Source: an uncultured Fibrobacteraceae bacterium (GTDB lineage Bacteria; Krumholzibacteriota; Krumholzibacteriia; LZORAL124-64-63). From it: a stretch of 62,662 nucleotides of DNA. The notes under the pieces were generated by a model that was not told where the DNA came from, ran no database searches, and was given only the letters and a program-made list of their open reading frames with translations. How positions within the stretch are numbered: position 1 is the first letter of the stretch; each line of letters starts with the position of its first letter. Location: the NCBI GenBank assembly GCA_964545545.1, contig CAZJGK010000004.1:1-62662 (forward strand), in the 5' to 3' direction. This document shows positions 10,494 through 38,911 of this stretch, piece by piece. The position numbers and the translations under genes were made by a program.

Positions 10494-10506
10494 CAGGCTG
10501 AAGGAG

Positions 10507-17171
<6,665 letters not shown>

Positions 17172-17175
<4 letters not shown>

Positions 17176-18779
17176 CCATGAGCACCAAACCTCAGCATAT
17201 CCTGGGGGACATTCCTCTTGATCTGGAAACATTCATGGCGGTGGTCGACGGCCGCTGCCAGGTGCGGCTGGGGGAGGCGGCCCGGCAGCGGATGGTGCGG
17301 TGTGCGGATTTTCGTCGGGAATTGGCAGGTTCCCAGCGGACCATCTACGGGGTGAATACCGGCTTTGGCAAGTTGGCGGACACGGTGATTCCCGCGCATC
17401 AGCAGGTCGATCTGCAGCGCAATCTCCTGCGCAGCCATGCCGTCGGCTGGGGCGAGGCTTTGTCCAGGCCACAGGTGCGAGGCATGATCCTGCTGCGGGC
17501 GGCTAGCCTGGCTCACGGCTATTCCGGTGCGCGACCGGCCGTGGTGGAACAGTTGCTCTGGCTGCTTGAGCAACAGATTACCCCGTGGATTCCCAGCCGC
17601 GGTTCGGTGGGTGCCTCGGGCGATCTGGCCCCCCTGGCGCATCTGGCTCTGGTCCTGATCGGTGAGGGACATGTTCTGGACCCGGAGGGAAAGCCCCTGC
17701 CGGCTGGTCCTGTTTTCCAGGAAACCGGGCGACCGGCCCTGGTCCTGGAGGCGAAGGAAGGTCTGGCCCTCATCAACGGGACCCAACTGATGAACAGCCT
17801 GGGTCTGCTGGCCGCTTTTCGCGGCGGCCAACTGCTTCGCTCCGCCACGGTGGCTGCCATGCTGTCGCTGGAGGCTCTGGAGGGCAGCGCTCGGCCCCTG
17901 GGCGAAGCTTACCATCAGTTGCGTCCGCATCCCGGCATCCTGGATGTGGCCAAGGCGTGCCGGGGGTTGCTGGCCGGCAGCGGTATCCTGGGAGCTCACC
18001 GCAACTGTTCCCGGGTGCAGGATCCCTATTCGGTGCGTTGTGTGCCCCAGGTGCTGGGCGCCTCTTTGGACGTCGTCCGCCACGCCTGCAGTGTGCTTGT
18101 CCTGGAAGCCGACAGTGTGACGGACAATCCTGTTTTGCTGCCTGAGCAGGGCGAGATCGTCACCGGGGGTCATTTCCATGGTCAGCCCCTGGCTTTTCAA
18201 CTGGACGCTCTCTACCAGGCCTTGAGTGAGGTCGCGAATATTTCGGAGCGCCGGATCAACCTTCTGCTGGGCGGCAACGGGGGCAGGTTGCCCCGCTTTC
18301 TGGCCCGCCGGCCGGGCTTGGAATCGGGCCTGATGATTGCCCAGTACCTGGCGGCGGCCCTTGTCAGTGAAAACAAGAACGGTGCCTTTCCCGCCGCCGT
18401 CGATTCGATCCCCACCTCCGACGGCCAGGAAGATCATGTGAGCATGGGCAGCATCGGCGCCCTGAAACTCTCGTCCCTGCTGGACCGCTGCCAGGCGGTG
18501 GTTGGTCTGGAAATGCTGACCGCCGCCCGGGCGCTCCGGTTTCTATCCCGGCATGACCTCGCAGCCGAGCTTCATCGCAATCCCATACGAACCTCCCTCG
18601 CCCTGGAGGCCGTGGTCGAGGAACTTGACCAGATCGCTGATCTCGAACCCGGAGACCGCTCGCTGACGGGTGATCTGGAGCGCGTGACCGCCTGGCTGAA
18701 TCGGCCCGCCTGGCCTGCCGTGACTTCGGCTTGTCTGGCTTCGGTGAGCGTCGACAGCGGCGGGGAAGGAGCAAGGTAG
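17172..18779 (+). CDS. hutH: Histidine ammonia-lyase
   Basis: The MIO-forming triad ASG sits in GSVGASGDLAPLAHL (17613-17621), and the NTGFG motif is present. GTG 17172 overlaps the dinG stop (GTGA); ATG 17178 is an alternative start. It lies next to hutI. Confidence 0.9.
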
Positions 18780-18781
18780 GA

Positions 18782-20104
18782 ATGTCCTGCGACGTGAAGC
18801 TCCATGGCGGGCTAGTCGGGTCTGCCGTTTCGCCTGACCTGATCGTGGAAAACATCGGCCAGTTGATCACCCTGGACCTGCCCGGTGAAGCGGGGAAGCA
18901 GGGGCCTTTGCGCGGAGGTGACCTGGACCATGTCGTGCCGGTCACCGATGGCATGCTCGTTTGTGGCGGGGGCCGGATCCTGGCGACCGGACCCCGGATC
19001 GATCTTGGCGCCCGCCTGCAGGAACTGGGCTGCGACCTGGGCCGGGTCAAGCGGGTGGACGCAGAGGGATGCACCGTGCTGCCGGGCTTCGTGGACCCGC
19101 ATACCCATCTTGTTTTCGGGCGGACCAGGCAAGATGAATACGAGCGCAGGATTCGCGGGGAAAGCTATCTCGAGATTGCCGCGGCCGGTGGCGGCATCAT
19201 GTCGTCGGTTAATGATCTGCGTGCCCGGACCGAGGATGAACTCGTGCGGCTGGGAGCGACCCGGGTCAGGGAGATGATGGCCTGGGGGACCCTGTCGGTG
19301 GAAGTCAAAAGCGGTTACGGTCTTGATCTGGAAAACGAGTTGAAGATGTTGCGTGCCGCCCGTCGGATCGCCGCGCTAACCGGCGTCAGGATGGTGACCA
19401 CTTGCCTGGCTGCCCATGAGATTCCGGTGGAATACAGGGAGCGCCGGAAGGATTACGTGGCGCTGGTCATGGATGAAATCCTGCCCAGGGTGGCCGCCGA
19501 AGGTTTGGCCGACAGAGCGGATGTATTTTGCGAACCTTCTGTTTTCAACCTGGATGAGACACGGCTGATCCTGAGCCGGGCCAGGGACCTGGGTCTGGCC
19601 CTGACCGTACACGCCGATGAACTGGAGGCTTACGGGGGTGCTGCCGTCGCCGTCGCCCTGGGTGCCGATTCGGCGGATCACTTGATCATGATCGACGCGC
19701 AGGGTATCCAGGCGTTGAGCGCTTCGCCGACTGTGGCCGTCCTGTTGCCGGGAACGGTTTTCAGCCTGGGCCTGGAGAAATATGCTCCCGCCCGCGAAAT
19801 GGTCGCTGCGGGTTGTGCGGTGGCCCTGGCTTCGGATTTCAACCCGGGCAGCTGTTCCATCAGCGCCATGCCGTTGATCATGGCTATTGCCTGCACGCAG
19901 ATGCGCCTTACTCCTGCCGAATGTCTTGCTGCCGCTACCCTTAATGCCGCGTGGGCACTCGGCCTGCAACACGAAACCGGATCCCTGGTTCCCGGTCATA
20001 GCGCTGATTTCCTGCTGCTTGATGGTGATGATTACCGTTTGGTGCCCTACCGGGCAGGGCACAACCCGGTGGCGGCAGCTTTTCTGCGCGGTCGACGGAT
20101 TTAG
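18782..20104 (+). CDS. hutI: Imidazolonepropionase
   Basis: It has the amidohydrolase motif FVDPHTHLVF, EIAAAGGGI and HADE. ATG 18782 is 2 nt after the hutH stop. Confidence 0.9.
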   Translation: MSCDVKLHGGLVGSAVSPDLIVENIGQLITLDLPGEAGKQGPLRGGDLDHVVPVTDGMLVCGGGRILATGPRIDLGARLQELGCDLGRVKRVDAEGCTVLPGFVDPHTHLVFGRTRQDEYERRIRGESYLEIAAAGGGIMSSVNDLRARTEDELVRLGATRVREMMAWGTLSVEVKSGYGLDLENELKMLRAARRIAALTGVRMVTTCLAAHEIPVEYRERRKDYVALVMDEILPRVAAEGLADRADVFCEPSVFNLDETRLILSRARDLGLALTVHADELEAYGGAAVAVALGADSADHLIMIDAQGIQALSASPTVAVLLPGTVFSLGLEKYAPAREMVAAGCAVALASDFNPGSCSISAMPLIMAIACTQMRLTPAECLAAATLNAAWALGLQHETGSLVPGHSADFLLLDGDDYRLVPYRAGHNPVAAAFLRGRRI

Positions 20105-20194
20105 TCCTCAACTTTCCCCGCTCAAGGTCGAACATTAAGTCAGTATTGCAAACTTCGGCCACGCGTTTATGCGAGCCATGGGAACCTACCTGGA

Positions 20195-21826
20195 GTGGGG
20201 GGCCATCACTTGTCCAAATTGAGCCAACTCAAACAGGATGCCTATCAGGCGGGTAAGGCGAGGGATTGGGACCTGGCCATTTCCGTTTATGAACAGATAC
20301 TTGAAATCGAAAAAAAGAACCCGACCCTGGTCAATGAGTTGGGCGATATCTGCCTGAAGTCGGGGGAATCCTCCCGCGCCGTAAAATATTTTCTCAATGC
20401 TGCTTCCCTGTACCGCAAGAACGGACTCGTCAACAACGCGGTCGCGATCTACAAGAAGATTCTGCGCTATGACAGCGACAATCTTAATGCGCACTGGTAC
20501 CTGGCCGAGTCCCGCGCCGGGCAGGGCCTGAAGGCGGAAGGCCAAGCCCACGTCATGGTTTTTCTGACCGGAAGTGGCGACGTGGCCGGGGACCTCAAGG
20601 AAATATTTCTGAAACGATGCGTGAGCCTGCTTGAACTGTACCCGGACAACGAGGAAATCCTGGATAAGCTGGTGCAAATTTTCCGCATGTGGGAAAAGCC
20701 TCTGGAAGCGGCGAGGGCGGGGATTCTTCAATGTTGCTTGAGTCATGGCAAGGAGGAAGCAGAATCCGCGGCTGGGGTGGAAACCATTGTTGCCCGGGAA
20801 CCTGCAGTCAAAAACTACCCGGAATATTCCCGCTGGAGTCAATTGGTGGATCCCCAAGGGACGGGACCCTCAGGCGCTTACGACGATTTCGGTTCCGTGA
20901 ACCTCGGAGACACCGGGCCGGCGCCGACTGCTCCTGGGGCGCGTCAAGATGTGCTCGATGATGTGGCCGCTCCCCGAGACGAAAGCACCTCCTTCGGTGA
21001 AGTCGCGCTGGACGGGGCCGCATCCACCGTGCAGGCACCCCCATCCGGAGAAACAAGTTCCCGCGGGCTCGATGTTCCTGACCCCGCGGACGAGTCCACC
21101 CGCAACGAAACCAGTTTCAGCGACCTCAATGCCGAAATCGATTCCCCGGAGAAAAATTCTGACGAAACGATGCCCGACGCCGATCCCCTGGCGCTGGATA
21201 AGGATGAAGAAGGATGTCTCAGCATCGACTCCCAGGGGATAGGGGATCTGGGCGAGATCCTGTCGGCCGCCATGGGGACCGACAAGGAGGAAGCCAACCC
21301 GGCGACAGATCCGGATCAGGCACCAGGGTCCGAGGAGGGGAAAGTCAATCTCCTGGACCAGCTTTTGGCGGAGGATGACGGTGATCTGCTGGGCAGGGAG
21401 ACCAACCAGCTGGAAACGATCACCGCCGAGATCGGCGCCCAGGTCGGAGGCGATGAGGACACGCCCGACAGGAAATATGAAATGGGGTTGGTCTACCTGG
21501 AAATGGGGATGCTCGATCAGGCGATCGATTGTTTCCAGGGTGTGAGCGCAGACCCGAAATACGCGGGGCGAGCGTACGAAATGTGGTCGATCACGCTGGA
21601 ACGCAGCCATCGGATGGAGGAGGCCCTGACGGTGTTGCGACAGGGTGTTGAGGCCGAGGCCGTCAACCAGACCGGTCGTCTGGGGCTGTTGTATCACCTG
21701 GGCAAGCAGCTCGAACAGGTCCAGCAGACCGATGAAGCAGGTCTGTGTTATGATCGGATCCTGGCCCAGGATCCCGCATATATGGATGTGGCGGCTCTCA
21801 GGTCGAAATTGACCGTGACCACTTGA
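20195..21826 (+). CDS. TPR-repeat protein with a long acidic low-complexity linker
   Basis: TPR-like helices occupy the N terminus (AISVYEQILEIEKKNP, AVAIYKKILRYDSDN) and the C terminus (MGLVYLEMGMLDQAIDCFQ). The central region is D/E/S/P-rich. The start is GTG. Confidence 0.7.
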   Translation: MGGHHLSKLSQLKQDAYQAGKARDWDLAISVYEQILEIEKKNPTLVNELGDICLKSGESSRAVKYFLNAASLYRKNGLVNNAVAIYKKILRYDSDNLNAHWYLAESRAGQGLKAEGQAHVMVFLTGSGDVAGDLKEIFLKRCVSLLELYPDNEEILDKLVQIFRMWEKPLEAARAGILQCCLSHGKEEAESAAGVETIVAREPAVKNYPEYSRWSQLVDPQGTGPSGAYDDFGSVNLGDTGPAPTAPGARQDVLDDVAAPRDESTSFGEVALDGAASTVQAPPSGETSSRGLDVPDPADESTRNETSFSDLNAEIDSPEKNSDETMPDADPLALDKDEEGCLSIDSQGIGDLGEILSAAMGTDKEEANPATDPDQAPGSEEGKVNLLDQLLAEDDGDLLGRETNQLETITAEIGAQVGGDEDTPDRKYEMGLVYLEMGMLDQAIDCFQGVSADPKYAGRAYEMWSITLERSHRMEEALTVLRQGVEAEAVNQTGRLGLLYHLGKQLEQVQQTDEAGLCYDRILAQDPAYMDVAALRSKLTVTT

Positions 21827-21894
21827 TGTAGTCCTGCCGGAAATATTTTTCCTCACCGCTACCCAACAGGTGAGGCCTGGGTTAAGATTCCCCG

Positions 21895-24531
21895 ATGGAC
21901 AAGGCGAATGTGACATCCGAACGCCCACGCGGAGTCCGTGCCGCCGTATTGCTGGGGCTTTTCGCCGGCACGGCCACAGGCGCGGGTTTTCTGTTGTCGG
22001 GCCTTCCCAACCTGGAATTGATGAGCCTGATCGTGGCCCTGTCCGGGGCGGTGCTCGGCGTCCGTCCGGGTGCGATTTGCGGGATGCTGGCTGCCGGGAT
22101 CTACTCCCTGGCCTCGCCCTATGGGGTCCCCGCCGTGTGGGTGCTGGGCGCCCAGATGTGTGGCATGGCCGGTGCCGGAACCCTGGGCGGTCTGTGGGGT
22201 ACCTTGCCGCCGCGGTTATTCGCCCCCGGCAGGCCGTGGCCTTCGGTGGTGGCGGCTGCTTGTCTGGGCGTATTGGTGACAACCTGGTATGAAGTTCTCA
22301 CCAATCTCGCCGTGTTGTGGGGATTCGGCCTGGAACCACGAGTCGTGCTGATCGGTGCCGTGCCGTTTTATCTCATTCATACGGGATCCAATGCCATGAT
22401 TTTTGCCCTGCTATTTCCTCCGCTGGCCACCCGCCTGTCGCACCTGGGCCACGGTGCCTTGAAAGGCCGGATGAATTCCGGGGCGGCGCTGGTCCTGCTC
22501 CTGATTTTTCTGGGAGCCGGCAAGACCCAGGCCCAGGACAAGGGGCAGGCGGGGACCGATTCCCTCACGGTTTCAGAAACCCCGCTGGTGACCCTGAAGC
22601 CGGCAAACACCGTCAATGGCTGGCGGCGGGGACTATGGCATCCTTTTTCCCAATCTCTGGTGGACCAGTTGGGTTGGAGTGGAAATCTGGTGCCGATCCG
22701 CGATGGTGGTTTGGGGGCGTCCGTTAGGATCCTGGGCGAGGTATCGACTTCCCCTTATCCCATCGTGATGAGGGACGGGTTGCCGCTGGGCACAGGCCAT
22801 GTGCTGGCCGACAATCCCGGCCTCGTGCCCCTGGCGGGCATGGAGATCGACTCCCTTGGTTGTGGTCTTGACCCCTGGGGCGGCTCGGGGGGCTGGATTC
22901 AACTGCACCGTCATGACCCGGTTCCCCAGGATGCCTTCTCCTCATACCAGGGGACAAAAGGCCGTCATGAAACCTATATGCGAAATGTGCAACTGCTTAC
23001 GCCACAGGCCCCTTGGCGTTTTGGCTTCGAGTACCAGGAGAACCTTGATCTGGAGGGCTACAACTTTACGGATTTGCCGGGTGATGTATTTGACCCGGTA
23101 GATGACACGTACTTTCCCGGACACGCACGCCTGCGCCAGAGCCATGCGCGCCTGACCCGGAATCTGGGTCCGGATTCCCGCCTGGATGTGGACTACGATC
23201 AGGGGCGTCTGACCAAGGACCAGCTGCCGGCTTTGGTGGCGGGCCATCAGGAGATCTGGTCGGATGGCGTGTCGGTGGACATGCATGGCGGCACGAACCG
23301 ACTCGGGATGCGGACCGCGGTTTTCTGGCGCAACAAGGATGTGAAGCTGGGACCTGCCTCGGATTCTTTTGATACGACCTCCCGCCTGCTGGAGACCGGC
23401 CGCGAAGGCGCTCTGGTCGAGCTTACCCTCAGGCACCGCCCAACCGCGCCTGCCATGGCCGTGCCCGCAGTGGCGGATTCCCTGACCGGGCCCGGCGTGC
23501 AGGAAGCCGTTGCGGATTCCCAGGTCGCCCTGCGACCGCCGGAGGCCGTTTCGGATACATTAGTTCGGTATCACGATCCCTCCTACCTCCGCCTGAAACT
23601 ATCGGTGTCAAGCTGGACCCTTGATGATACCGGCGCGGATACGACCTGGGCCGGCCCTGTCGCCGATCCGGTTCACATGGATGGCCAACAGGCCACCGCC
23701 ACATTGTCGACGCAGTTCCGGCGGGTCGGCCTGGATTGGCGGGCGCAGGCCGGAGGCCTGTGGAATAACCGGTTGGGCTGGGATTCCACCGCCGCCGTGA
23801 GCCTGCAACAAAGGTGGGGCCGCCTGGGACTGCGGCTATTCTGGGAGACGGGCGGCCGCGCCCCCCGCAGTGACGAACTGGGGACAATCCTGCGGCATGG
23901 TGTCGCTGACCGGGTACTCATCCTGGATCCCAATCCCGACCTGAAAAGGGAAAGGACCATGCGCGCCGGTGGACGGCTGAGCGTGGACATCGCTGGTCTG
24001 AATCTTGCCATGGATGGTGTGGCCGGCCGACTCAGCGAGGGCATCACCTGGGTGGCCGCCACCCCCGGCGGTGACCGTGGCCGCTTGGTCAACGGTGCGA
24101 ACCTTGATTTCCAGAAACTGACCACGGCCGTGTCCCACGAGGGCCGCTTCCTGGGCTGGGGTCGAGTCCGTTACGAGGGCACATGGCAGAATATCACACC
24201 CGACGGACTTCCCCCGTCGACCCTGCCTCCGCGGCGGTATTCCCGGCTGCAGGTGATGTGGGAAAACCATCTTTTCGAAGAGGACGGGATCCTGGAAATC
24301 GCCCTGTTCAGCACCCACGTGGGGGAGATGGCGGACCCCTGGGATGTGACGCGCTCGGCCCTGATACCCTCACGGACGATTCAGGATCTTGTGTTGGGAT
24401 TTCGGTTGGTGGGGGCGGATCTGTCCCTGGCGTTTCGAAATTTCACGGGACAACGTTATCGCCTGACGTCCGGGGCCTGGGGGCCGGGCAGGGAAACGGT
24501 GATGAGACTGGCCTGGAGCTTCACCCGCTGA
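21895..24531 (+). CDS. Fusion ORF: multi-TM membrane domain (ECF S-component-like) plus a TonB-dependent-receptor-like plug and barrel
   Basis: Residues 1-190 are highly hydrophobic with about 5-6 TM segments. An internal Met at 22471 starts a signal-peptide-like MNSGAALVLLLIFLGAGKTQAQ. A plug-like segment follows (VRILGE...IVMRDGLPLG), then a long beta-rich region ending LAFRNFTGQRYRL...RLAWSFTR. Confidence 0.6.
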   Translation: MDKANVTSERPRGVRAAVLLGLFAGTATGAGFLLSGLPNLELMSLIVALSGAVLGVRPGAICGMLAAGIYSLASPYGVPAVWVLGAQMCGMAGAGTLGGLWGTLPPRLFAPGRPWPSVVAAACLGVLVTTWYEVLTNLAVLWGFGLEPRVVLIGAVPFYLIHTGSNAMIFALLFPPLATRLSHLGHGALKGRMNSGAALVLLLIFLGAGKTQAQDKGQAGTDSLTVSETPLVTLKPANTVNGWRRGLWHPFSQSLVDQLGWSGNLVPIRDGGLGASVRILGEVSTSPYPIVMRDGLPLGTGHVLADNPGLVPLAGMEIDSLGCGLDPWGGSGGWIQLHRHDPVPQDAFSSYQGTKGRHETYMRNVQLLTPQAPWRFGFEYQENLDLEGYNFTDLPGDVFDPVDDTYFPGHARLRQSHARLTRNLGPDSRLDVDYDQGRLTKDQLPALVAGHQEIWSDGVSVDMHGGTNRLGMRTAVFWRNKDVKLGPASDSFDTTSRLLETGREGALVELTLRHRPTAPAMAVPAVADSLTGPGVQEAVADSQVALRPPEAVSDTLVRYHDPSYLRLKLSVSSWTLDDTGADTTWAGPVADPVHMDGQQATATLSTQFRRVGLDWRAQAGGLWNNRLGWDSTAAVSLQQRWGRLGLRLFWETGGRAPRSDELGTILRHGVADRVLILDPNPDLKRERTMRAGGRLSVDIAGLNLAMDGVAGRLSEGITWVAATPGGDRGRLVNGANLDFQKLTTAVSHEGRFLGWGRVRYEGTWQNITPDGLPPSTLPPRRYSRLQVMWENHLFEEDGILEIALFSTHVGEMADPWDVTRSALIPSRTIQDLVLGFRLVGADLSLAFRNFTGQRYRLTSGAWGPGRETVMRLAWSFTR

Positions 24532-24587
24532 AAACCGCGGCGTCCTTTGCCCCCGGACTTCCTCTGCGGCAGGCGGTCGGTTTCCTG

Positions 24588-24953
24588 GTGCTGATCCTGG
24601 TGCTGGCAGCCGGCCACCAGTTGCGCGTCCACCTGTTGCTGGGGCCGGAGGGTGCCTGGAGACAGGAATTGCAGCACTTGCCCTGGAGTGACGAGGGCGG
24701 CGACATGGCGGATGTACCCGCGGTCCCCAAAGCTGTATTATCGCTTCCCTTGGCCATCAATACGGCTCCCCTGGACAGTCTTGTGTTGTTGCCTGGAGTG
24801 GGGCCTGTGCTGGCCGCCAGGATCCGTGATGCCCGCAATTCAGGCCACATTTTCCGGAAAGCATCGGATCTGAAAGTCGTCAAAGGCATCGGCGCACGCC
24901 TGGCTGCCCGGCTGGACACCCTTCTCGCCTACGGATCCGCCTCCGCCAAATAA
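24588..24953 (+). CDS. comEA: ComEA-type helix-hairpin-helix DNA-binding protein (start uncertain)
   Basis: The C-terminal tandem HhH is INTAPLDSLVLLPGVGPVLAARI...VVKGIGARLAARL. A hydrophobic segment VGFLVLILVLAAG lies upstream. No ATG/GTG/TTG occurs in frame between 24531 and 24588, so the start may be GTG 24588 or CTG 24528. Confidence 0.65.
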   Translation: MLILVLAAGHQLRVHLLLGPEGAWRQELQHLPWSDEGGDMADVPAVPKAVLSLPLAINTAPLDSLVLLPGVGPVLAARIRDARNSGHIFRKASDLKVVKGIGARLAARLDTLLAYGSASAK

Positions 24954-25101
24954 TTCAGGTTAAAGTCTTATGGCTTCCAACCGATCAATGCAGGGAGCGG
25001 GGTATCCGTTGCGGCCCGATTTGTGGATCGAAACAGGGCGTCGTTCCGGTTCGCGGAGCTTGGCAGGGCCTGGAAGCGGAAACAACAATGACGAGGGACC
25101 G

Positions 25102-26784
25102 ATGATTACAACCAAAAACAAGGTTGCCGCGAAACTTCTGGAAGCAGGTTTGATAACCGATGCTGACCTGGCCAAGGCCCAGGAAATCCAGAAGAAGCAA
25201 GGCGGGTCGATAGGTCAGGCCTTGATCAAGGCCGGGGCGGTCGATGAGACCACTCTGACCACCTTCCTGGGCCAGGTCTACAACCTGCCGGTTGTGGATC
25301 TGGACACGGTCCAGGTGGAGTTGGAATGCGTCGATATGGTTCCCGGTGACGTGGCTCGAAAATTCCAGGTGCTGCCGGTGACGCGGCGGGGCAGGGTCCT
25401 GACCGTTGCCATGTCCAACCCCAGCAATATTTTCGCCATCGACGATATCAAGTTCATCACAGGCCTTGATGTTCAGCCTGCCGTGGCTGGCGAAATGGCC
25501 ATCAAGAAATCCATCGACAAGTACTATGCCACCGCAGATTCCCTCACCGAGATCATGGAGGGCATCGAAGCGGATATCGAGGTCGTGGAGGAAGAGGATG
25601 ACGACGACATCACCGGGCAGGAAGGTCAGAACGCGCCGGTGGTCAAGCTCGTCAACACCCTGCTGGCCGAAGCGGTCAAGATGGGCGCCAGCGATATCCA
25701 CATCGAACCCTACGAACGCAATATGCGCGTCCGGTACCGCGTTGACGGTGTGCTGCAGGAGGTCATGGAGCCGCCGATCAAATTGAAGAACGCCATCATC
25801 AGTCGTTTGAAAATCATGTCCGAACTGGACATTGCAGAACGCCGGATTCCCCAGGACGGCCGCATCAAATTGAAGATCGGGAGCAAGAAAATCGATCTGC
25901 GTGTTTCCACCCTGCCGTGCATCTACGGGGAAAAAGTGGTAATGCGTATTCTCGATAAAGGGAATCTGAATCTGGACTTGGGCGATTTCAACATGGAAAA
26001 GGAAGCGATCGCTAATATCTATCACGCCATTGCCCAGCCCTTTGGCATGGTCCTGGTTACCGGTCCCACTGGATCAGGCAAGACCACGACGTTGTATTCC
26101 TGCCTTTCGAAGCTGAACAACCCGGACCTGAACATCATGACGGCCGAAGACCCTGTGGAGTACAACATCGACGGCATCAACCAGGTCCAGGTACGTGAGG
26201 ATGTCGGCTTGACGTTCGCCGCGGCTCTCAAGGCGTTTCTCAGGCAGGATCCCAACATCATCATGGTCGGTGAAATCCGGGACCTGGAAACCGGTGGTAT
26301 TGCCACCAAGGCGGCGCTCACCGGCCACCTGGTGCTCTCGACGCTGCATACCAATGATGCGCCCAGCACCATCAACCGGATGATGGACATGGGGCTGGAG
26401 CCGTTCCTGGTGGCCTCGTCGACCCTGTTGATCATGGCGCAGCGGCTGGTGCGGCGGATCTGTTCGAACTGCAAGGAAGAGATTGAAGTGCCGCCGGATG
26501 CGCTGCGCGATATCGGACTGCCGCCCGGCACGACGGTCTTCGCGGGCAAGGGCTGCGACAAGTGCGGGGGCACGGGATATTCCGGACGTCAGGGGCTCTA
26601 TGAAGTCATGCCCATCACCTCCGAAATACGCGATCTCATCCTGGATCGCGCCGCGACCAGCGAGATCACGAAGATGGCGGTTCAGCAGGGCATGCTGACC
26701 CTGCGTCGGGACGGGCTAATCAAGATCCAGAAGGGCATCACGACCATCGAGGAAGTTTTGCGGGAAACCGCAATAGGGGACTAG
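25102..26784 (+). CDS. pilB: Type IV pilus assembly (extension) ATPase
   Basis: It has a GspE-N domain (LLEAGLITDADLAKAQ), Walker A GPTGSGKTTT, Asp/His boxes, and the tetracysteine motif CSNC...CDKCGGTG. Confidence 0.93.
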   Translation: MITTKNKVAAKLLEAGLITDADLAKAQEIQKKQGGSIGQALIKAGAVDETTLTTFLGQVYNLPVVDLDTVQVELECVDMVPGDVARKFQVLPVTRRGRVLTVAMSNPSNIFAIDDIKFITGLDVQPAVAGEMAIKKSIDKYYATADSLTEIMEGIEADIEVVEEEDDDDITGQEGQNAPVVKLVNTLLAEAVKMGASDIHIEPYERNMRVRYRVDGVLQEVMEPPIKLKNAIISRLKIMSELDIAERRIPQDGRIKLKIGSKKIDLRVSTLPCIYGEKVVMRILDKGNLNLDLGDFNMEKEAIANIYHAIAQPFGMVLVTGPTGSGKTTTLYSCLSKLNNPDLNIMTAEDPVEYNIDGINQVQVREDVGLTFAAALKAFLRQDPNIIMVGEIRDLETGGIATKAALTGHLVLSTLHTNDAPSTINRMMDMGLEPFLVASSTLLIMAQRLVRRICSNCKEEIEVPPDALRDIGLPPGTTVFAGKGCDKCGGTGYSGRQGLYEVMPITSEIRDLILDRAATSEITKMAVQQGMLTLRRDGLIKIQKGITTIEEVLRETAIGD

Positions 26785-26806
26785 AGCAACCGGGAGGGAA
26801 AATCCA

Positions 26807-27877
26807 GTGACTGGAATGCGGGAATTACTCGAGGATATGGTGACCAAGGGTGCCAGCGATCTTCATATTGTGGCGGGTCTGCCCCCTCAGTACCGTATCG
26901 ACGGCAGCATCGTCTCGACAGGGCTGGAAGTCCTGAACGGCGAGGAAACCATGCGGCTGGCCTACAGCATCCTCAACGAGGAACAGAAAAAGCGCTTCGA
27001 GACGAAAAAGGAACTCGATCTTTCCTTCGGGGTGCAGGGGATCAGCCGTTTTCGCGCCAACGTGTTTCTGCAGCGGGGGGTGGTCTCCATGGCCATCCGC
27101 CAGATTCCCTACAAGATCAACACGTTTGAAGAACTTGGTTTGCCTCCGGTGTGCCGCCAGCTAATCCAGCGCACCCATGGCCTGGTCCTGGTGACCGGGC
27201 CGACCGGGAGCGGCAAGTCGACAACCCTGGCGACCATGGTCGACACCATCAACACGTCGCGCAAGGGCCACATCATCACCATCGAGGATCCCATCGAGTT
27301 TGTTCACCAGCACAAGAACTGCATCGTCAACCAGCGCGAAGTGAACAGCGACACCCACAGTTTTCCCGATGCCCTCAAGTATGTACTGCGCCAGGATCCC
27401 GACGTCATCCTGATCGGCGAGATGCGGGACAGGGAGACGATTTCCGCCGCCTTGACCATTGCCGAAACCGGACATCTGGCCATGGCTACCCTGCATACAA
27501 ACAGCACCTTCGAATCGATCAACCGTATCATCGACGTGTTCCCGCCTGAACAACAGAACCAGATACGATCCCAGTTGTCGTTCTGCCTCAATGGGGTCAT
27601 CACGCAGCAACTGCTGCCGAAAGCCAGAGGCGCGGGCCGTGTTCTGGCCCTCGAAGTCATGGTCTGTACCCCGGCCATCAAGTCCATGATCCGGGATGAC
27701 AAGACCCACCAGATCTATGGCCACATGCAGGCCGGGCAGAAGCACGGCATGCAGACCATGAACCAATCGCTCTACCAAGCCGTCATCAACAAATGGATCA
27801 CACTGGAAACGGCCACTGGCCGGAGTTCGGATGTGCAGGAACTGCAGCAGATGCTCGGCCAACCGGTCGTAGTATAA
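26807..27877 (+). CDS. pilT: Type IV pilus retraction ATPase
   Basis: Its size (356 aa) fits PilT. It has GASDLHI, Walker A GPTGSGKST and ATLHTNS. GGGAGG RBS lies 8 nt before GTG 26807. Confidence 0.92.
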   Translation: MTGMRELLEDMVTKGASDLHIVAGLPPQYRIDGSIVSTGLEVLNGEETMRLAYSILNEEQKKRFETKKELDLSFGVQGISRFRANVFLQRGVVSMAIRQIPYKINTFEELGLPPVCRQLIQRTHGLVLVTGPTGSGKSTTLATMVDTINTSRKGHIITIEDPIEFVHQHKNCIVNQREVNSDTHSFPDALKYVLRQDPDVILIGEMRDRETISAALTIAETGHLAMATLHTNSTFESINRIIDVFPPEQQNQIRSQLSFCLNGVITQQLLPKARGAGRVLALEVMVCTPAIKSMIRDDKTHQIYGHMQAGQKHGMQTMNQSLYQAVINKWITLETATGRSSDVQELQQMLGQPVVV

Positions 27878-27899
27878 CCCGTAGCGCCGGAGGAATCCC

Positions 27900-29114
27900 G
27901 TGAGTGCCACAACTTATAACTGGAAAGGCCGGACCAACAAGGGTGAGATCCTGTCCGGGGAATACACGTGCGAGGACCGGAAGGGCGTGGGGGACTACCT
28001 GCGCAAGCGCCGGATCGTGATCACTTCCATCAAGAAGAAGCCGAAGGAAATCCAGCTCGGGTTCCTGAAGAAGACCAAGGTCGGAGTAAAGGACCTTTCG
28101 GTATTTACCCGGCAGTTCGCCACCATGGTCAACGCCGGTCTGCCTTTGGTCCAATGCCTGGACATCCTGAGCCGGCAGCTCGACAAGCCGCATTTCAAGA
28201 TAGTCGTCCAGCAGGTCACCACCGACGTCGAAGGCGGTTCGACCCTGGCCGAGGCCCTCGAGAAACACCCCAAGGTATTCTCGGACCTGTTTGTAAACAT
28301 GATCGCCGCCGGTGAGGCCGGCGGTATCCTGGATGTGATCCTGGGCCGGCTGGCCGTATTCCTGGAAAAGGCCGATGCCCTGCAGCGCAAGGTCAAGGGT
28401 GCCATGACCTATCCCACCATCGTGCTGACGGTGGCAGGCGGTGCCTGCATTTTCATGCTCATGTTCGTGATCCCGGTGTTCGCCAAGATGTTTTCGGATT
28501 TCGGAGGCGTCCTTCCCGCTCCCACGAGGATCGTGATGGGGTTGTCGGATTTCCTGAAGGCGTACTGGTGGGCCTTGGGCGGTGGCGCCGCAATCCTGAC
28601 CTTCGCCTTCAAACGCTATCGTGCGACTCCCAAGGGCAAGATGGTTACTGATCGTCTGGCGCTGCGGATTCCTGTTCTCGGCACGGTGTTGCGCAAGTCT
28701 TCGGTGGCCCGGTTTACCCGCACCCTCGGCACGCTTATCGGCTCCGGGGTGCCCATCCTGCAGGGTCTTGAAATCACCTCCAAGACAGCGGGCAACGCGG
28801 TCATTCAGAAAGCCATCCAGGATACGGCCGTCAGCATCAGTCAGGGCGACACTATTGCCAAGCCGTTGAAGGATAGCGGCGTGTTCCCGCCCATGGTCGT
28901 TCAGATGATCGGGGTCGGGGAGCAGACAGGCGCCCTGGATGAAATGTTGAACAAGATCGCGGATTTCTATGACGACGAAGTCGATTCGGCCGTGGAGGCG
29001 CTCACTGCGGCCATCGAACCCATAATGATCGTGGTCATGGGAACCATGGTTGGCGGTATGCTCGTGGCCATGTATTTGCCGATGTTCAAGATGTCCAGTG
29101 TCGTCGGAAAATGA
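27900..29114 (+). CDS. pilC: Type IV pilus inner-membrane platform protein (GspF family)
   Basis: It has two GspF-type repeats (FTRQFATMVNAGLPL and FTRTLGTLIGSGVPI) and three TM segments. GGAGG RBS precedes GTG 27900. Confidence 0.92.
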   Translation: MSATTYNWKGRTNKGEILSGEYTCEDRKGVGDYLRKRRIVITSIKKKPKEIQLGFLKKTKVGVKDLSVFTRQFATMVNAGLPLVQCLDILSRQLDKPHFKIVVQQVTTDVEGGSTLAEALEKHPKVFSDLFVNMIAAGEAGGILDVILGRLAVFLEKADALQRKVKGAMTYPTIVLTVAGGACIFMLMFVIPVFAKMFSDFGGVLPAPTRIVMGLSDFLKAYWWALGGGAAILTFAFKRYRATPKGKMVTDRLALRIPVLGTVLRKSSVARFTRTLGTLIGSGVPILQGLEITSKTAGNAVIQKAIQDTAVSISQGDTIAKPLKDSGVFPPMVVQMIGVGEQTGALDEMLNKIADFYDDEVDSAVEALTAAIEPIMIVVMGTMVGGMLVAMYLPMFKMSSVVGK

Positions 29115-30862
29115 GCGTGTCCCAGGGTGGGGTCGGTATGCGTCCGGAAAGTGAAATCATCCGGGGCGACGTCCCCAACCTACGCCTGTTGCGCTGGCGG
29201 CTGGGGTTTGCCGTGGTCCTTACCGGCACCTCGGCGGGCATGGTGCTCATGGGACCCCTGCAGGTTACGCTGCCCGGAGTGGTGGTTTCCCTGGGACTGC
29301 TGTACACCACCTTGGCAGCCTGCTGGGCGGCCGCGCTGGTGCCCTTGAACCCCAAGGCCCTTTTGGCCGTACAACTTTCCGCAGACACCCTGGTCATAGG
29401 CCTGCTGGTTCATTTTACCGGCGGGCCGTTCTCCATCCTGCCGCTCGCTTTCTGTTTTCCCATCATGCTCGGGGCCTATTTCCTGGGTTCACGGGGAGCC
29501 ATGACCTTGGCCGGTGCCGCGGCGATTTTTACCGGTGGCGGCCACTTCGGCCTGGCGCTGGGTTGGATGTTGGCCGGGAGTTCCGCTCCGGTGGCCTACC
29601 TGCAGGGCTGGCCCGTCATGGTCACGGCCTTGCATCTGGCGCTGTTCATCTTCACGGGCATGATCAGCGCTTCGCTGGCGCAGAAGCTTACCATGCGCCG
29701 GCGACAGAAACAGCGGAGCGAGGAGATCACCGCCAAGGCGCGCTGCGAGCTGCGCAACATCCTACTGAATATCCGCAGTGGATTGTTGACCGTCGACATC
29801 GGCGGGGTTGTTACCCGCATGAATCCTGCCGCCGAACGTATCCTGGGGCTGAAAGAACATGATGTCCTGGGACAGAATCTGGAACTGATAACCGCCGGCG
29901 GCATGGAGGAACTGGCCCAGGTCGTGTTGCCCATCGCCGCAGGCAGCCCACCCCTGCCCAGAGGGGAAATCCAGGTTGTGAGCAAGAATGGAATCATGCC
30001 CCTGGGGCTCAATGTCAACCCGGTGTTGAGCAACGACGGTCAGCTGGCCGGCGCGATCGTCATCTTCACCGATCTGACCCGGGAAAAGGAAATGACGGCC
30101 CGGATCAGGGAGTCGGATCGCATGGCCGCCGTGGGCGAACTGGCCGCCAGCATCGCCCACGAGATCCGCAATCCCCTGGCCAGTATCCGTGGCAGCGTGG
30201 AGATGCTGGCCGCGGAGCTTGACCTGGAGGGGAACCTCGACCAGTTGTTGAGCCTGGTTTTGAAGGAAAGTGCCAGGGTCAACACCATCATCAACGATTT
30301 TCTCGCCTACTCGAGGATGCGCCCCGTTTTCTTGCGGCGCATTGCCGCTGACGAGTTCATGGTCGAAGTGGAGCTCCAGGCGATCCAGCATGTGGTGGCC
30401 CATGGCGGCAAGGTCGACGTCGAATTCAATTGTCAGCCACAGGACATGGTCATGATGGCCGATCCCGCCCAGCTCACCCAGCTGATACTCAACCTGGTCA
30501 TCAACTCCTGCGAGGCCATGGATTACGCAGGCCGGATTGATCTGGAATTGAGCCTTACGGAGGACGGACACGTGCTGGAAGTCCATGACTCCGGGCCGGG
30601 AATCGATCCGGAAATCCGGAAAGACCTGTTTGCTCCCTTCAAGACCACCAAGGAAAAGGGCACCGGCCTGGGACTGGCCATGGTCGCCCGCATTGCCTCC
30701 GCCCACGGCGGGCACGTGAGCGTGGGCCAAGGTGTATCCGGCGGGGCCATGTTCACGTTCAACTGGCCCTTGCAACCGCCGGTGAGGGAGGAATCCGCCG
30801 AAAATCCTGCATATCCCTCCGTTTCCGCAGAAAATCCTGCCACGTCCGCATTTCAACAGTAA
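29111..30862 (+). CDS. pilS: Sensor histidine kinase, PilS-like (polytopic N terminus, PAS, HisKA, HATPase)
   Basis: ATGA overlap with the pilC stop. It has about 6 N-terminal TM helices, a PAS-like segment, the H-box SIAHEIRNPL, and N/G boxes (NLVINSCEAM, DSGPGI, GTGLGL). Confidence 0.85.
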   Translation: MSVSQGGVGMRPESEIIRGDVPNLRLLRWRLGFAVVLTGTSAGMVLMGPLQVTLPGVVVSLGLLYTTLAACWAAALVPLNPKALLAVQLSADTLVIGLLVHFTGGPFSILPLAFCFPIMLGAYFLGSRGAMTLAGAAAIFTGGGHFGLALGWMLAGSSAPVAYLQGWPVMVTALHLALFIFTGMISASLAQKLTMRRRQKQRSEEITAKARCELRNILLNIRSGLLTVDIGGVVTRMNPAAERILGLKEHDVLGQNLELITAGGMEELAQVVLPIAAGSPPLPRGEIQVVSKNGIMPLGLNVNPVLSNDGQLAGAIVIFTDLTREKEMTARIRESDRMAAVGELAASIAHEIRNPLASIRGSVEMLAAELDLEGNLDQLLSLVLKESARVNTIINDFLAYSRMRPVFLRRIAADEFMVEVELQAIQHVVAHGGKVDVEFNCQPQDMVMMADPAQLTQLILNLVINSCEAMDYAGRIDLELSLTEDGHVLEVHDSGPGIDPEIRKDLFAPFKTTKEKGTGLGLAMVARIASAHGGHVSVGQGVSGGAMFTFNWPLQPPVREESAENPAYPSVSAENPATSAFQQ

Positions 30863-30931
30863 AGAAGCCGGCTGCGGAGCCGATATCCCTCCTGACACCT
30901 TTTGGATCAGACCCGTTGCGAGGAGCATTTC

Positions 30932-32455
30932 ATGGCCCAGGACAGGATATTGGTCGTCGATGATGAGGAATCCATGTGCCAGTACCTCTCCATCCTGTTG
31001 CAGAAGGAAGGGTACACCGTCGAGACCACAAATTCAGCCGCCACGGCCCTGGAGCGTTTTCGCAAGGGAAAATTCAACCTGGTCATGACCGATATCCAGA
31101 TGCCGAAAATGGACGGCATCGAGCTGCTCAAGGAGATCAAGGGCATCGACCCGACCAGTCCGGTCATCATCATGACCGCCTATGCCAGCGAGCAGTCGGC
31201 GATTGATGCGGTAAACCTCGGTGCCTTCTCATACCTGCAAAAGCATTGCAAGAACGACGACATCAAGATGGTTGTCCGCAATGCTCTGGAATTGAACAAG
31301 GCCCGCAGCGAGAACCAGGAACTTCGCCGTGAACTGACGCGGACAAAGAGTCCCAAACAGATCATCGGCAACAGCAGCCGCATACGGTCGGTGTTCAAGA
31401 TGGTGGACAAGATCGCGGGGACCAAAGCCACCGTTCTTATCAACGGGGAAAGCGGAACCGGCAAGGAACTGGTGGCGCAGTCCATCCACCAGCGGAGCAA
31501 CCGCAGCAGTGGTCCCTTCGTGGCCATCAATTGCGGCGCAATCCCCGAGACACTCCTGGAAAGCCAGCTCTTCGGACACGTCAAGGGTTCGTACACGGGC
31601 GCCGATCGCGACCACGATGGATTCTGCAGGCAAGCCGAGGGTGGGACGATCTTTCTGGATGAAATCGGGGAAACGCCCCTGTCCATCCAGGTCAAGCTTT
31701 TGCGGATGCTCCAGGAGCGCGAGATCTACCCGGTGGGAAGCAGCTGCCCGGTGAAGGTCGATGTGCGGGTGATTGCCGCCACCAACCGCGACCTGGAAGA
31801 CGAGGTCAGCCAGGGAAACTTCCGCACGGACCTTTATTACCGGCTCAATGTCATTCCCCTGCTGCTGCCCGCCTTGCGGGAACGCGCCGACGATATTCCC
31901 CTGCTGGTGGATCACTTCCTGAAGCGCTGCCTGGGATCCGAGTATACCGGCGGTATAGCCAATTTCATGGACGAAGCGACTCTGCGCATCCTGTCGGCCT
32001 ATGAATGGCCAGGCAATGTGCGCGAACTTGAGAATGTTATCGAACGGGCCGTGATCATTCATGAAGGCAACAGGATCACCGCTGGTGATCTCCCCGAACA
32101 CATTCGCGCGATGGGGCCGGCGGGGACCACGTCCTCCACCCTGCAGGTTGGGGGAAATGTGACGTTGGATGATCTGGAGCAGGCCCACATTCTGGGCGTC
32201 CTGGAGTCCACCGATGGGGCGCGCAAGTTGACCTCGGAAATCCTGGGAATCAATGCCTCCACCCTTTACCGCAAGCTGAAGAAGTATGGCCTGGGGGACG
32301 AGGAGGCTGAAGAAGAATTGGTGGACCAGACGGTGGAGGTTCCCGGGGCGGAACTCCTTGATGCTGTCGAAAGTGTCATGCGCGAAGCCGACGGAGAGTC
32401 CGCTGCCACCGCACAAGAGAGAGTTGATGCCGATGCCGCAGAGCTTTCGGTGTGA
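30932..32455 (+). CDS. pilR: Sigma-54-dependent response regulator, PilR-like (NtrC family)
   Basis: It has a receiver domain (ILVVDDEESM...MTDIQMP), an AAA+ domain with GESGTGKE, the sigma-54 contact loop GSYTGA (31586-31603), ESQLFGH, and a Fis-type HTH (INASTLYRKLKKYG). GAGGAG RBS precedes the start. Confidence 0.9.
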   Translation: MAQDRILVVDDEESMCQYLSILLQKEGYTVETTNSAATALERFRKGKFNLVMTDIQMPKMDGIELLKEIKGIDPTSPVIIMTAYASEQSAIDAVNLGAFSYLQKHCKNDDIKMVVRNALELNKARSENQELRRELTRTKSPKQIIGNSSRIRSVFKMVDKIAGTKATVLINGESGTGKELVAQSIHQRSNRSSGPFVAINCGAIPETLLESQLFGHVKGSYTGADRDHDGFCRQAEGGTIFLDEIGETPLSIQVKLLRMLQEREIYPVGSSCPVKVDVRVIAATNRDLEDEVSQGNFRTDLYYRLNVIPLLLPALRERADDIPLLVDHFLKRCLGSEYTGGIANFMDEATLRILSAYEWPGNVRELENVIERAVIIHEGNRITAGDLPEHIRAMGPAGTTSSTLQVGGNVTLDDLEQAHILGVLESTDGARKLTSEILGINASTLYRKLKKYGLGDEEAEEELVDQTVEVPGAELLDAVESVMREADGESAATAQERVDADAAELSV

Positions 32456-32589
32456 TTTGCCCGCTCCTGGTACTTGTGGCCGGGCGAATCGCAAGCAAAT
32501 GCGGAAAGAATGATGCGGTAAGGCTGATTTAAAAATTCTAACCCGTTGCCCCATAGTAAATTATGGGAATCGGGGAAAAAATCTGCGGG

Positions 32590-32605
32590 TGGCATGACCA
32601 TTGCA
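32590..32605 (+). promoter_or_regulatory. Sigma-54 -24/-12 promoter upstream of the first pilin gene
   Basis: TGGCATGACCATTGCA matches TGGCAC-N5-TTGCW with correct GG/GC spacing. It lies 93 nt upstream of the pilin start and directly downstream of pilSR. Confidence 0.75.
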
Positions 32606-32697
32606 TAGTTGGTTCAGCCATAGGCAGGTGGATGGGGAGGGGCGTAATGTTATCTCCCGGATTCAAGGTCCGCGGACCATTGCAAGGAGGACAGGTA

Positions 32698-33120
32698 GTG
32701 TTGAATCGTAAGGGCTTTACTCTGATTGAGCTGATGATCGTCGTCGTGATCATCGGTATCCTGGCTGCTATCGCCATTCCTAATTTCATCAGCATGCAGG
32801 ACCGGGCCAAGGAAGCCAAGGTCAAGGGCGCGGCCCATACTCTGCAGCTGGCCGCCGAGGACTACGCCGTGCGCAATGACGGCATCTACTCGGATGCCCA
32901 GGCAGATGTGGGTGCTTTGCTGCCCCAGGATCCCGGCGGCGGCAACAACCTGCAGAACGCCTTCACCGGTCTGTACACCGAGCCCGTGTGGGCTGGTGCG
33001 GCTGGCGCTTCGGGTCAGGTTGGCATCGTGGCCATCGCCCAGGGCGGTGTGAACGTGGGTTACACGATCACCGGTTTCGGCAAGACGGCAAACGTCATTT
33101 CCTTGACCAGCGGCCAGTAA
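32698..33120 (+). CDS. pilA: Type IVa pilin (major pilin candidate 1)
   Basis: AAGGAGG RBS precedes the start. The short leader VLNRKG is followed by FTLIELMIVVVIIGILAAIAIPNF (class III signal, Glu5). The protein is 140 aa and has no cysteine. Confidence 0.92.
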   Translation: MLNRKGFTLIELMIVVVIIGILAAIAIPNFISMQDRAKEAKVKGAAHTLQLAAEDYAVRNDGIYSDAQADVGALLPQDPGGGNNLQNAFTGLYTEPVWAGAAGASGQVGIVAIAQGGVNVGYTITGFGKTANVISLTSGQ

Positions 33121-33140
33121 TCTCTGTCGCAAGGGTATCG

Positions 33141-33181
33141 CGGGCGGAGCTGGCTTGAGCCGGTTCCGCCCGTTGCCTTTC
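33141..33181 (+). terminator. Hairpin (possible attenuating terminator) after the first pilin gene
   Basis: CGGGCGGA (33141-33148) pairs with TCCGCCCG (33165-33172). It is followed by TTGCCTTTCT. The T-tract is weak. Confidence 0.4.
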
Positions 33182-33191
33182 TGGGAGCGTC

Positions 33192-34075: not shown

Positions 34076-34101
34076 CCCTACGCCAAGCCCCTGAACCCCG
34101 C

Positions 34102-34117
34102 TGGCATCCGTGTTGCA
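34102..34117 (+). promoter_or_regulatory. Sigma-54 -24/-12 promoter upstream of the ABC-transporter/pilD unit
   Basis: TGGCATCCGTGTTGCA has the same core and spacing as the pilA promoter. It lies about 75-80 nt upstream of the ABC ATPase start. Confidence 0.7.
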
Positions 34118-34190
34118 TGGCATCTCTTTGTACTGTCTGAATGCGGGGATAACGGGTTCCATGGCCCGTCCAGCTGGTTTGAGGTGATCA

Positions 34191-37526: not shown

Positions 37527-37664
37527 CCTTGATCTGATGTGGGCATCTTGGCTGCCGGGGCCGCCTGACCCCGTTCATGCAAATATCTGTCCCCTCACCG
37601 CATTTCCCGGGCAAAAGCCCCAGAATAATTCTCAAGGTCTTTTTCCTCCGGTCGATGATCGTAA

Positions 37665-37679: not shown

Positions 37680-37751
37680 GGTTGCCCCCGAGGGTAACCC
37701 TTGGTACCGGCTCAATCCGGCATAACGCACGAACAGCAAGGCAGGCTTGAC

Positions 37752-38909: not shown

Positions 38910-38911
38910 AG

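Follow-up and report, generated by a model that had tools for sequence, protein, structure and literature searches.

How can a single open reading frame (ORF) encode both a domain of the inner membrane and a receptor of the outer membrane? The question is raised by a gene in a 62,662-nucleotide stretch of DNA, hereafter called the window, from contig CAZJGK010000004.1 of an uncultured bacterium placed in the Krumholzibacteriota (assembly GCA_964545545.1). The ORF at positions 21895 to 24531 on the plus strand encodes 878 amino acids and contains no internal stop codon, as stated in a first-pass annotation made from the sequence alone. That annotation regarded the arrangement as a topological paradox and offered three explanations for it: internal translation initiation, cleavage by signal peptidase that releases the barrel, or an assembly or frameshift artefact. 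Three parts can be distinguished in the ORF: a domain with the predicted fold of an S-component of the energy-coupling factor (ECF) transporters (residues 12-185), an internal segment resembling a signal peptide (M193-A213), and a plug followed by a barrel of about 22 strands. We consider it probable that the gene gives rise to one precursor, which signal peptidase I would cut into a transporter of the inner membrane and a receptor of the outer membrane, both serving the same substrate. The features of the gene are listed below, where pLDDT is the predicted local distance difference test score of AlphaFold2.

21895 to 24531, plus strand: the whole ORF, the putative fusion precursor (ORF list; full-length homologues at 33-64% identity; in frame at 48 genome loci).
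21928 to 22449, plus strand: six-helix inner-membrane domain resembling an ECF S-component, residues 12-185 (AlphaFold2 model, Foldseek, PF12822 in homologues).
22432 to 22470, plus strand: positively charged, predicted cytoplasmic loop after helix 6, R180-R192, the would-be n-region (positions of Lys and Arg).
22471 to 22533, plus strand: putative internal signal peptide, M193-A213, with the core AALVLLLIFLGA and a predicted site between TQA and QD (junction alignment, core length).
22534 to 22620, plus strand: variable disordered linker, Q214-G242, the would-be N-terminus of the mature receptor (pLDDT below 50 at residues 207-242).
22555 to 22578, plus strand: TonB-box-like motif T-D-S-L-T-V-S-E, residues 221-228 (linker conservation, likeness to BtuB).
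22621 to 22929, plus strand: plug-like domain, about residues 243-345, with the conserved start G-W-x-R-x-L-W-x-P-F and containing R-D-G-x-P-L-G-T-G-H (AlphaFold2, Foldseek, invariant columns).
22936 to 24525, plus strand: predicted beta-barrel of about 22 strands, residues 348-877 (pLDDT mostly above 90, Foldseek).
23440 to 23577, plus strand: disordered, poorly conserved insertion of 46 residues in a barrel loop, residues 516-561 (pLDDT below 50, no majority consensus residue).
24493 to 24522, plus strand: last strand E-T-V-M-R-L-A-W-S-F, with invariant R871, W874 and F876 (C-termini of 40 homologues, invariant columns).

The fusion is a real, conserved gene rather than a reading frame left open by chance. 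Among 5.8 billion proteins searched, 41 homologues with 33-64% identity were recovered, nearly all of them full-length (830-954 amino acids), and a scan of one genome per species yielded 63 loci, essentially all in metagenome-assembled genomes of Candidatus Krumholzibacteriota. Separate profiles for each half were run over the stop-to-stop ORFs of these loci, 10 of which are cut by a contig end. Both halves share one frame in 48 of the 53 Krumholzibacteriota loci in which the junction could be read, and the barrel occurs without the N-terminal domain in the other five. This also answers the earlier suggestion that orthologues might reveal a stop codon at the junction. Two adjacent genes could in principle have been fused by an assembly error or a frameshift, given that split versions with an overlap of 1-4 nucleotides exist and that a single-base error could join them. 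Against this, the same in-frame junction is present in 48 independently assembled loci and in further metagenome contigs at 33-64% identity, and since the open frame is conserved across both homologues and genome loci, we regard the probability of an artefact as negligible.

The six helices of the N-terminal part are predicted to adopt the fold of an ECF S-component, as the first-pass annotation had surmised from their size and style. According to the AlphaFold2 model and its secondary structure assigned by DSSP, residues 12-185 form the six helices and are followed by a short helix (196-206), a disordered linker (207-242) and a beta-rich domain that extends to residue 877. A model of the N-terminal domain by itself reached a pLDDT of 88.9, and its best 21 Foldseek matches in the PDB were all ECF S-components (RibU, PanT, ThiT, FolT and BioY), with template modelling (TM) scores of 0.44-0.71 and modest E-values of 0.02-0.85. 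Likewise, PF12822 matched the domain in 18 of 23 homologues at E≤0.1 (best E 1.9e-8), and precomputed matches to the same model exist for three homologues. The riboflavin S-component model matched in 11 homologues, matches to PF07155 were weak but consistent across the family, and a profile of the domain identified RibU at E 0.018 among the PDB sequences. The copy in the window itself fell below the PF12822 cut-off, with an E-value of 0.98. The first 190 residues contain several hydrophobic stretches, and Lys and Arg cluster at the N-terminus and at residues 107-113 and 180-192, as would suit six helices with the N- and C-terminus on the cytoplasmic side. The S-like family comprises more than 100 representatives at E<1e-24, and its domain carries an invariant signature consisting of P38-N-x-E41 in loop 1 together with Q87, T136 and H162. 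In one member of the family, the 431-residue protein P0165, the S-domain makes up the C-terminal 180 residues and follows an unrelated N-terminal part of 235 residues.

For the C-terminal part, structure prediction points to the fold of a TonB-dependent transporter, in line with the plug-like segment and beta-rich domain noted at first. An AlphaFold2 model of the whole protein, built on an alignment of 40 sequences, had a mean pLDDT of 80.6 and a predicted TM-score of 0.73, with most of the barrel above 90. At E≤0.001, Foldseek found 266 matches in the PDB, and each of the 50 listed was a TonB-dependent transporter aligned over both plug and barrel. The top match was BtuB (1nqg; E 2e-25, target-normalised TM-score 0.78), followed by PirA, PfeA, FepA, YncD, Cir and OprC. 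As in BtuB and other TonB-dependent transporters, an N-terminal plug appears to sit in a barrel of about 22 strands (target-normalised TM-scores 0.78-0.80), and the short motifs shared with these receptors are collinear: R-D-G-x-P-L in the plug, N-P-D-L-x-x-E, and N-L-T-x-x-x-Y/R with G-R-E in the last strands. The C-terminal R-L-x-W-x-F is invariant and resembles an outer-membrane insertion signal, with two residues following it. Unlike BtuB, the protein in the window lies beyond the reach of the Pfam and NCBIfam models, has a short plug of about 100 residues, continues for two residues after its terminal aromatic residue and is translated behind a six-helix domain rather than from a start codon of its own. 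The organism has an outer membrane in which such a receptor could reside, since the window also encodes a BamA-like Omp85/POTRA protein and a PilQ secretin.

The segment that joins the two halves has the character of an export signal, which we assessed with rule-based signal-peptide calls on 49 distinct fused orthologues. In the window, K190 and R192 precede the hydrophobic core AALVLLLIFLGA, after which come T211-Q212-A213 and, beyond the predicted cut, Q214-D215. Between one and five Lys or Arg residues stand before the core in all 49 orthologues, and the core has a median length of 12 residues (range 7-22), which can be compared with 8-20 residues in the N-terminal signal peptides of stand-alone receptors and 10-17 in those of split receptors. 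In nearly all of the 49, Q, E or D comes directly after a small-x-Ala site, in a region where the flanking sequence is otherwise unalignable. The segment thus conforms to the pattern recognised by Sec and signal peptidase I, with a positive n-region, a core of about 7-15 residues and small residues at -3 and -1. The internal signal peptide that the first-pass annotation had placed at the Met codon at 22471 is retained as a segment in our analysis, although the proposed AxA site is instead T-Q-A, and the cut is likely to fall before Q214 and not after it.

Between the predicted site and the conserved start of the plug lies a disordered linker, rich in Ala, Pro, Asp and Ser, that measures 15-119 residues in the 49 orthologues, with a median of 49. 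The shortest linkers, of 15-30 residues, belong to loci L021, L032, L001, L002, L024 and L028. The sole conserved element within it is D-[ST]-[LTV]-x-[AVT], with the Asp present in 37 of 40 sequences, the following Ser or Thr in 33 and the next Leu, Thr or Val in 30. In E. coli BtuB, QDTSPDTLVVTA is located at the start of the mature protein after the signal peptide, a position that matches that of the linker motif. The TonB box of BtuB reads D-T-L-V-V, and a D-S-L-x-V motif occupies the same place here. The new N-terminus of the receptor after the cut is predicted to be QDKGQAGTDSLTVSE. The linkers of P0033, P0042, P0102, P0107 and P0114 contain two to five repeats of D-S-[LV], resembling tandem TonB-box-like elements. 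A terminator-like hairpin at 22480-22501, within the codons for the signal peptide, is at chance level, and a scan for promoters and terminators around the gene identified nothing above chance.

We also considered the possibility that two proteins are made from one messenger RNA, with ribosomes restarting at the ATG at 22471 so that the receptor is translated separately. The codon for Met193 at this position is in frame and is preceded, 4 nucleotides upstream, by AAAGG, which is present as first noted and can be read as a weak Shine-Dalgarno-like motif. Furthermore, the split relatives described below use a coupled restart at exactly this point. Met193 is nevertheless not conserved: an ATG falls between -10 and +3 codons relative to the core in only 5 of the 49 orthologues, 14 lack any ATG, GTG or TTG, and a Shine-Dalgarno-like motif is seen in 4. 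Separate translation is therefore a very unlikely explanation for the family. Internal initiation was rejected as a conserved mechanism on the basis of these 49 orthologues; it could add a minor product in the genome of the window.

The relatives in which the modules occur separately offer a second line of evidence on the nature of the junction. Receptor-only forms, in which the homologous position holds a normal N-terminal signal peptide, were identified in L045, L047, L058, L059 and P0065-P0074. L072 and eight loci from metagenomes (L111-L113, L117, L119, L124-L126) have the split form. Here, an S-like gene of about 200 codons (PF12822 at E 4e-6 for L112 and L119) precedes a receptor gene that starts with its own signal peptide exactly where the fusion has its internal segment. 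The start of the receptor gene overlaps the stop codon of the S-gene or lies within a few bases of it, as read in L072, L111-L113, L119 and L124; the overlaps are ATGA or TAATG (1-4 nucleotides), with a GGAG-type Shine-Dalgarno motif upstream. Because the split and receptor-only relatives have the middle segment as a true N-terminal signal peptide, we interpret it in the fusion as the receptor's own signal peptide, to which it appears to be homologous and from which its features are indistinguishable.

The split pairs also connect the family to recognised receptors. The receptor of L119 is above the cut-offs for both Pfam Plug and TonB_dep_Rec_b-barrel, and those of L112, L124 and L072 are above one of the two; in L112 this is the barrel model, with Plug scoring 20.1 bits against a cut-off of 23.9 bits. 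The searches against TonB, Plug and ECF S-component families that had been suggested at the outset thus leave the window protein below their thresholds, yet recognise PF12822 in its homologues and the plug or barrel in its split relatives. The domain order is the same in the split pairs as in the fusion, and several of them reside at the same chromosomal position (hutI-TPR-...-ComEA-PilB). Unlike the gene in the window, they are built from two genes whose stop and start codons overlap, and they have a Shine-Dalgarno motif. The idea that the ORF conceals two genes of one uptake pathway is therefore apt in an evolutionary sense, with separate overlapping genes in relatives, but no artefact masks two genes in the window.

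Additional fusions were recovered by an exhaustive profile search of 1.84 billion representatives, which returned at least 15 further long proteins (766-902 amino acids) that match in the S-domain only. Four of the nine that were scanned carry Pfam Plug, TonB_dep_Rec_b-barrel or both, and an internal signal peptide was observed in all of them. One of them, P0147 from candidate division KSB1, contains a SusC-like receptor, and its S-domain is 36% identical to the window family with an hhalign probability of 99.5%. The fusions to TonB-dependent transporters that Pfam recognises appear to have arisen independently of the fusion in the window. Fused and split forms are intermixed in a rough neighbour-joining tree of the S-domains, an indication that the genes have joined or separated several times at the point where the stop and start codons overlap. 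There, altering one base would be enough to turn the split form into the fused form or back again.

Two types of loss were also seen. In L035 (4912-7845) and P0057, the first conserved residues of the S-domain (VRQ..LLG.FSG) are joined straight to the signal peptide and barrel, which we interpret as an in-frame deletion of the S-domain. In the receptor-only sub-clade (L045, L047, L058, L059), the upstream gene for a tetratricopeptide repeat (TPR) protein and the S-domain are missing together, a pattern that fits one deletion of the TPR gene and the 5' third of the fusion, with the internal signal peptide now presumably N-terminal. The barrel of L045 and L047 lies at about 5.6-7.8 kb. PilB and PilT no longer follow ComEA in L047, L058 and L059, and only 158 nucleotides of downstream sequence are available in L045.

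How, then, would the two halves reach two different membranes? One chain would be made, and its six-helix S-component-like domain would become embedded in the inner membrane, with both of its termini on the cytoplasmic side. The hydrophobic segment that comes after it would act as an ordinary Sec signal peptide and guide the other 665 residues through to the periplasm. Cleavage by signal peptidase I would follow after T-Q-A213, leaving the N-terminal part in the inner membrane with the signal peptide retained as a seventh helix. The released C-terminal part, with the TonB-box-like D-S-L-T-V at its new N-terminus, would fold into a plug-and-barrel receptor in the outer membrane. The receptor would then bring a scarce cofactor across the outer membrane, perhaps in a TonB-dependent manner, and the S-component-like protein would take the same cofactor across the inner membrane, either alone or in concert with the ATPase module of an ECF transporter. 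No topological paradox remains, because helix 6 leads into a basic loop that is predicted to be cytoplasmic, so that the segment is oriented like a normal export signal. Of the three explanations offered initially, the comparative data favor release of the barrel by signal peptidase, and a single precursor cut by signal peptidase I is the most economical reading because the segment both matches an export signal and runs from inside to outside. Cleavage between TQA and QD predicts the semi-tryptic peptide (pyro)QDKGQAGTDSLTVSETPLVTLKPANTVNGWR and the absence of the junction-spanning peptide MNSGAALVLLLIFLGAGK...TQAQDK.

An alternative hypothesis is that the protein stays uncut, with a seven-helix anchor in the inner membrane and a linker that crosses the periplasm to the barrel in the outer membrane, as a covalent conduit or tether across the envelope that could pass substrate straight from receptor to importer. 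In its favor, the disordered linker abounds in Ala, Pro, Asp and Ser and in some orthologues extends to 119 residues. Physical linkage could also be advantageous in a fusion that has been retained throughout the phylum and that originated or endured in several lineages outside it. On the other hand, the core (median 12) has the length seen in signal peptides and falls short of a membrane span, the small-x-Ala site is retained in the midst of variable surroundings, and the split and receptor-only relatives manage without a covalent link. Furthermore, a residue spans about 0.35 nm and the periplasm about 20 nm; by our estimate the linkers of 15-30 residues would reach at most 5-10 nm, which makes an uncut tether unlikely as the general state. 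A further version, in which some or all of the precursor escapes cleavage, the S-domain remains tied to the TonB-box end of the plug and the cofactor is handed directly from receptor to importer, also seems rather unlikely. If true, such a connection could replace a periplasmic binding protein and, conceivably, TonB itself.

The nature of the cofactor is suggested by sister lineages. Rfam scans identified the cobalamin riboswitch RF00174, with scores of 76-120 bits, directly upstream of the fusion or the split pair in five of them:

L067: fusion P0138, with RF00174 directly upstream.
L068: fusion P0114, with RF00174 directly upstream.
L130: fusion P0187, with RF00174 directly upstream.
L073: fusion P0147 (KSB1), with RF00174 directly upstream.
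L072: split pair of P0096 and a receptor, with RF00174 directly upstream.

In NCBIfam, P0147 and P0102 come closest to vitamin B12 receptor models, at scores below the cut-off. There is also a precedent in BtuM, a solitary S-component-like importer of vitamin B12, the gene of which adjoins btuB (PMC6072759). Taken together with the fold match to BtuB, these observations point to a corrinoid as the substrate imported by the family. As the riboswitches were found solely in sister lineages, a corrinoid of the vitamin B12 family in the clade of the window is an extrapolation, for which we see about an even chance. The resemblance to BtuM lies in the genetic coupling to a BtuB-type receptor and, in the sister lineages, in the control by a cobalamin riboswitch. 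It does not extend further: no homology to BtuM was found, BtuM and CbrT were absent from the 50 listed Foldseek matches and from the PDB profile matches of the S-domain, and an invariant Cys of the kind that serves as the cobalt ligand in BtuM was not seen in the S-domain alignment of the family. Compared with the characterised ECF S-components RibU, ThiT, FolT, BioY and PanT, the family shares the predicted six-helix fold and the weak but consistent matches to PF12822 and PF07155, but it differs in its own P-N-x-E, Q87, T136 and H162 signature, in its fusion to a receptor and in the lack of nearby genes for an ECF module.

The riboswitch lineages have other features in common. A second SusC-like transporter (CarboxypepD_reg, Plug and barrel) always follows the fusion or pair, at 10803-12950 in L067, 6667-8865 in L068, 8546-10750 in L072 and 6365-8437 in L130. 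A beta-propeller-type gene of the SGL or DUF5074 kind is often next, and the whole looks like a two-receptor module. A DUF1848 gene follows each of two fusions that have no riboswitch, P0126 and P0102 (L129 2433-7388, L131 489-3786), and genes for QueH and a radical-SAM protein precede P0126.

Several observations weigh against the reading of one cleaved precursor for corrinoid import. The case for cleavage is built on rules for signal-peptide features and on homologous segments that are real signal peptides. Neither the window protein nor either of its halves has a significant match in Pfam or NCBIfam, and PF07715 (Plug) and PF00593 (TonB_dep_Rec_b-barrel) do not match it even at E≤1. An hhalign comparison with canonical receptors gave a weak result (E 8.5e-4, probability 24%, along the final 180 residues), a whole-family profile found no TonB-dependent transporter among the PDB sequences, and a BLASTP search against E. 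coli BtuB was not significant, with only an N-P-D/N-L-x-x-E motif aligned. The last aromatic residue of the receptor is at position -3 and not at the C-terminus, and the TonB-box-like motif of the linker has no counterpart in several receptor-only relatives. No genes for TonB, ExbB or ExbD were seen near the gene among the window ORFs scanned, and none for EcfT, EcfA or EcfA' within 6-10 kb in any locus examined. Finally, Rfam detected no riboswitch in the window at either gathering or permissive thresholds, and the cobalamin riboswitch is absent in the other relatives in a TPR/ComEA context as well as upstream of the fusions P0102 and P0126.

The genes on either side could suggest a different function altogether, and two of them deserve to be listed.

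20195 to 21826, plus strand: gene for a TPR protein, upstream of the fusion (Pfam TPR families; synteny across the phylum and beyond).
24756 to 24911, plus strand: helix-hairpin-helix (HHH) domain of a ComEA-like gene (PF12836 HHH_3, E 1.3e-9).

The order ligA-helicase-(hutH)-hutI-TPR-[S/receptor]-ComEA-PilB-PilT is kept in nearly every Krumholzibacteriota locus and in the distant relatives L065, L069 and L112, and it persists where the fusion is split. A ComEA-like HHH gene lies 3' of the barrel in every locus with downstream sequence, except L045 and L062, which have 158 and 1 nucleotides, respectively. It is thus conceivable that the pair serves DNA uptake or the type IV pilus machinery rather than cofactor import, given its conserved position between the TPR gene and comEA-pilB-pilT, which includes L065, L069 and L112, the stand-alone S-like gene directly upstream of ComEA in L071, the ComEC gene upstream of the split pair in L072, and the presence of DprA and a full pilus cluster in the window. 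Yet the conserved block includes the unrelated housekeeping genes ligA, helicase, hutH and hutI, for which reason the synteny looks inherited and not functional. For passage through the outer membrane, the window encodes a PilQ secretin of its own, and in other lineages the fusion is located after rimM-trmD-rplS, under a cobalamin riboswitch and without competence genes nearby. Even in L072, the riboswitch lies between ComEC and the split pair. A role in DNA uptake is therefore highly doubtful, and cofactor import remains the function that we favor for the pair.

To what extent is such an arrangement new? Both domain families are well known. The cytochrome b-c1 precursor FbcH of Bradyrhizobium japonicum is a membrane polyprotein that is cut at an internal signal peptide. 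As in the window, the chain begins with a polytopic protein of the inner membrane and continues with a signal peptide and an exported partner in the same pathway; unlike in the window, both products stay at the inner membrane, whereas the second product proposed here would go to another membrane. In the literature searched, we found no description of a fusion between an S-domain and a receptor via an internal signal peptide, phylum-wide and in other candidate phyla, and none of the S-like family as a likely corrinoid importer; for this architecture and for TonB-dependent receptors in the Krumholzibacteriota, nothing relevant was found beyond the BtuM paper. If our interpretation is correct, the gene would represent a natural bacterial polyprotein with two products in different membranes. 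An outer-membrane barrel would begin its life co-translationally behind a polytopic domain, which would provide a test case for Sec, signal peptidase and the beta-barrel assembly machinery. The fusion would also serve as a Rosetta stone that pairs a large, unnamed S-like family with TonB-dependent receptors, and the riboswitches of the sister lineages would make this family a candidate for a further type of corrinoid importer in uncultured phyla of the FCB group, beside BtuCDF, ECF-CbrT and BtuM. To our knowledge, no cultured members of the Krumholzibacteriota have been reported, and the interpretation would offer a functional handle on a conserved gene in this phylum.

Some minor observations concern the surrounding genes. 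The conserved block, at 12423-27877 in the window, was followed through loci L002-L064, L065, L069 and L112, where it is conserved from 64% to about 30% identity. The ComEA-like gene begins at or near the stop codon of the fusion, and its start codon is uncertain: the frame (24183-24953) contains no ATG, GTG or TTG between the barrel stop and its own membrane anchor, so that translation would start inside the 3' end of the fusion or at a non-standard codon. The type IV pilus cluster at 24970-42038 encodes PilB, PilT, PilC, a pilin, a prepilin peptidase, PilM/N/O and the PilQ secretin, together with ORFs at the positions of PilS and PilR that were assigned by syntenic position alone. It is interrupted by an ABC transporter, and the DprA gene is found a few kb downstream (44790-45698). 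Yet another long ORF in the window, at 7047-10493, encodes 1148 amino acids without a Pfam match and is the immediate upstream neighbour of the Omp85/POTRA gene (10462-12393); L065 likewise has an ORF of more than 1000 amino acids before a POTRA/ShlB-type gene.

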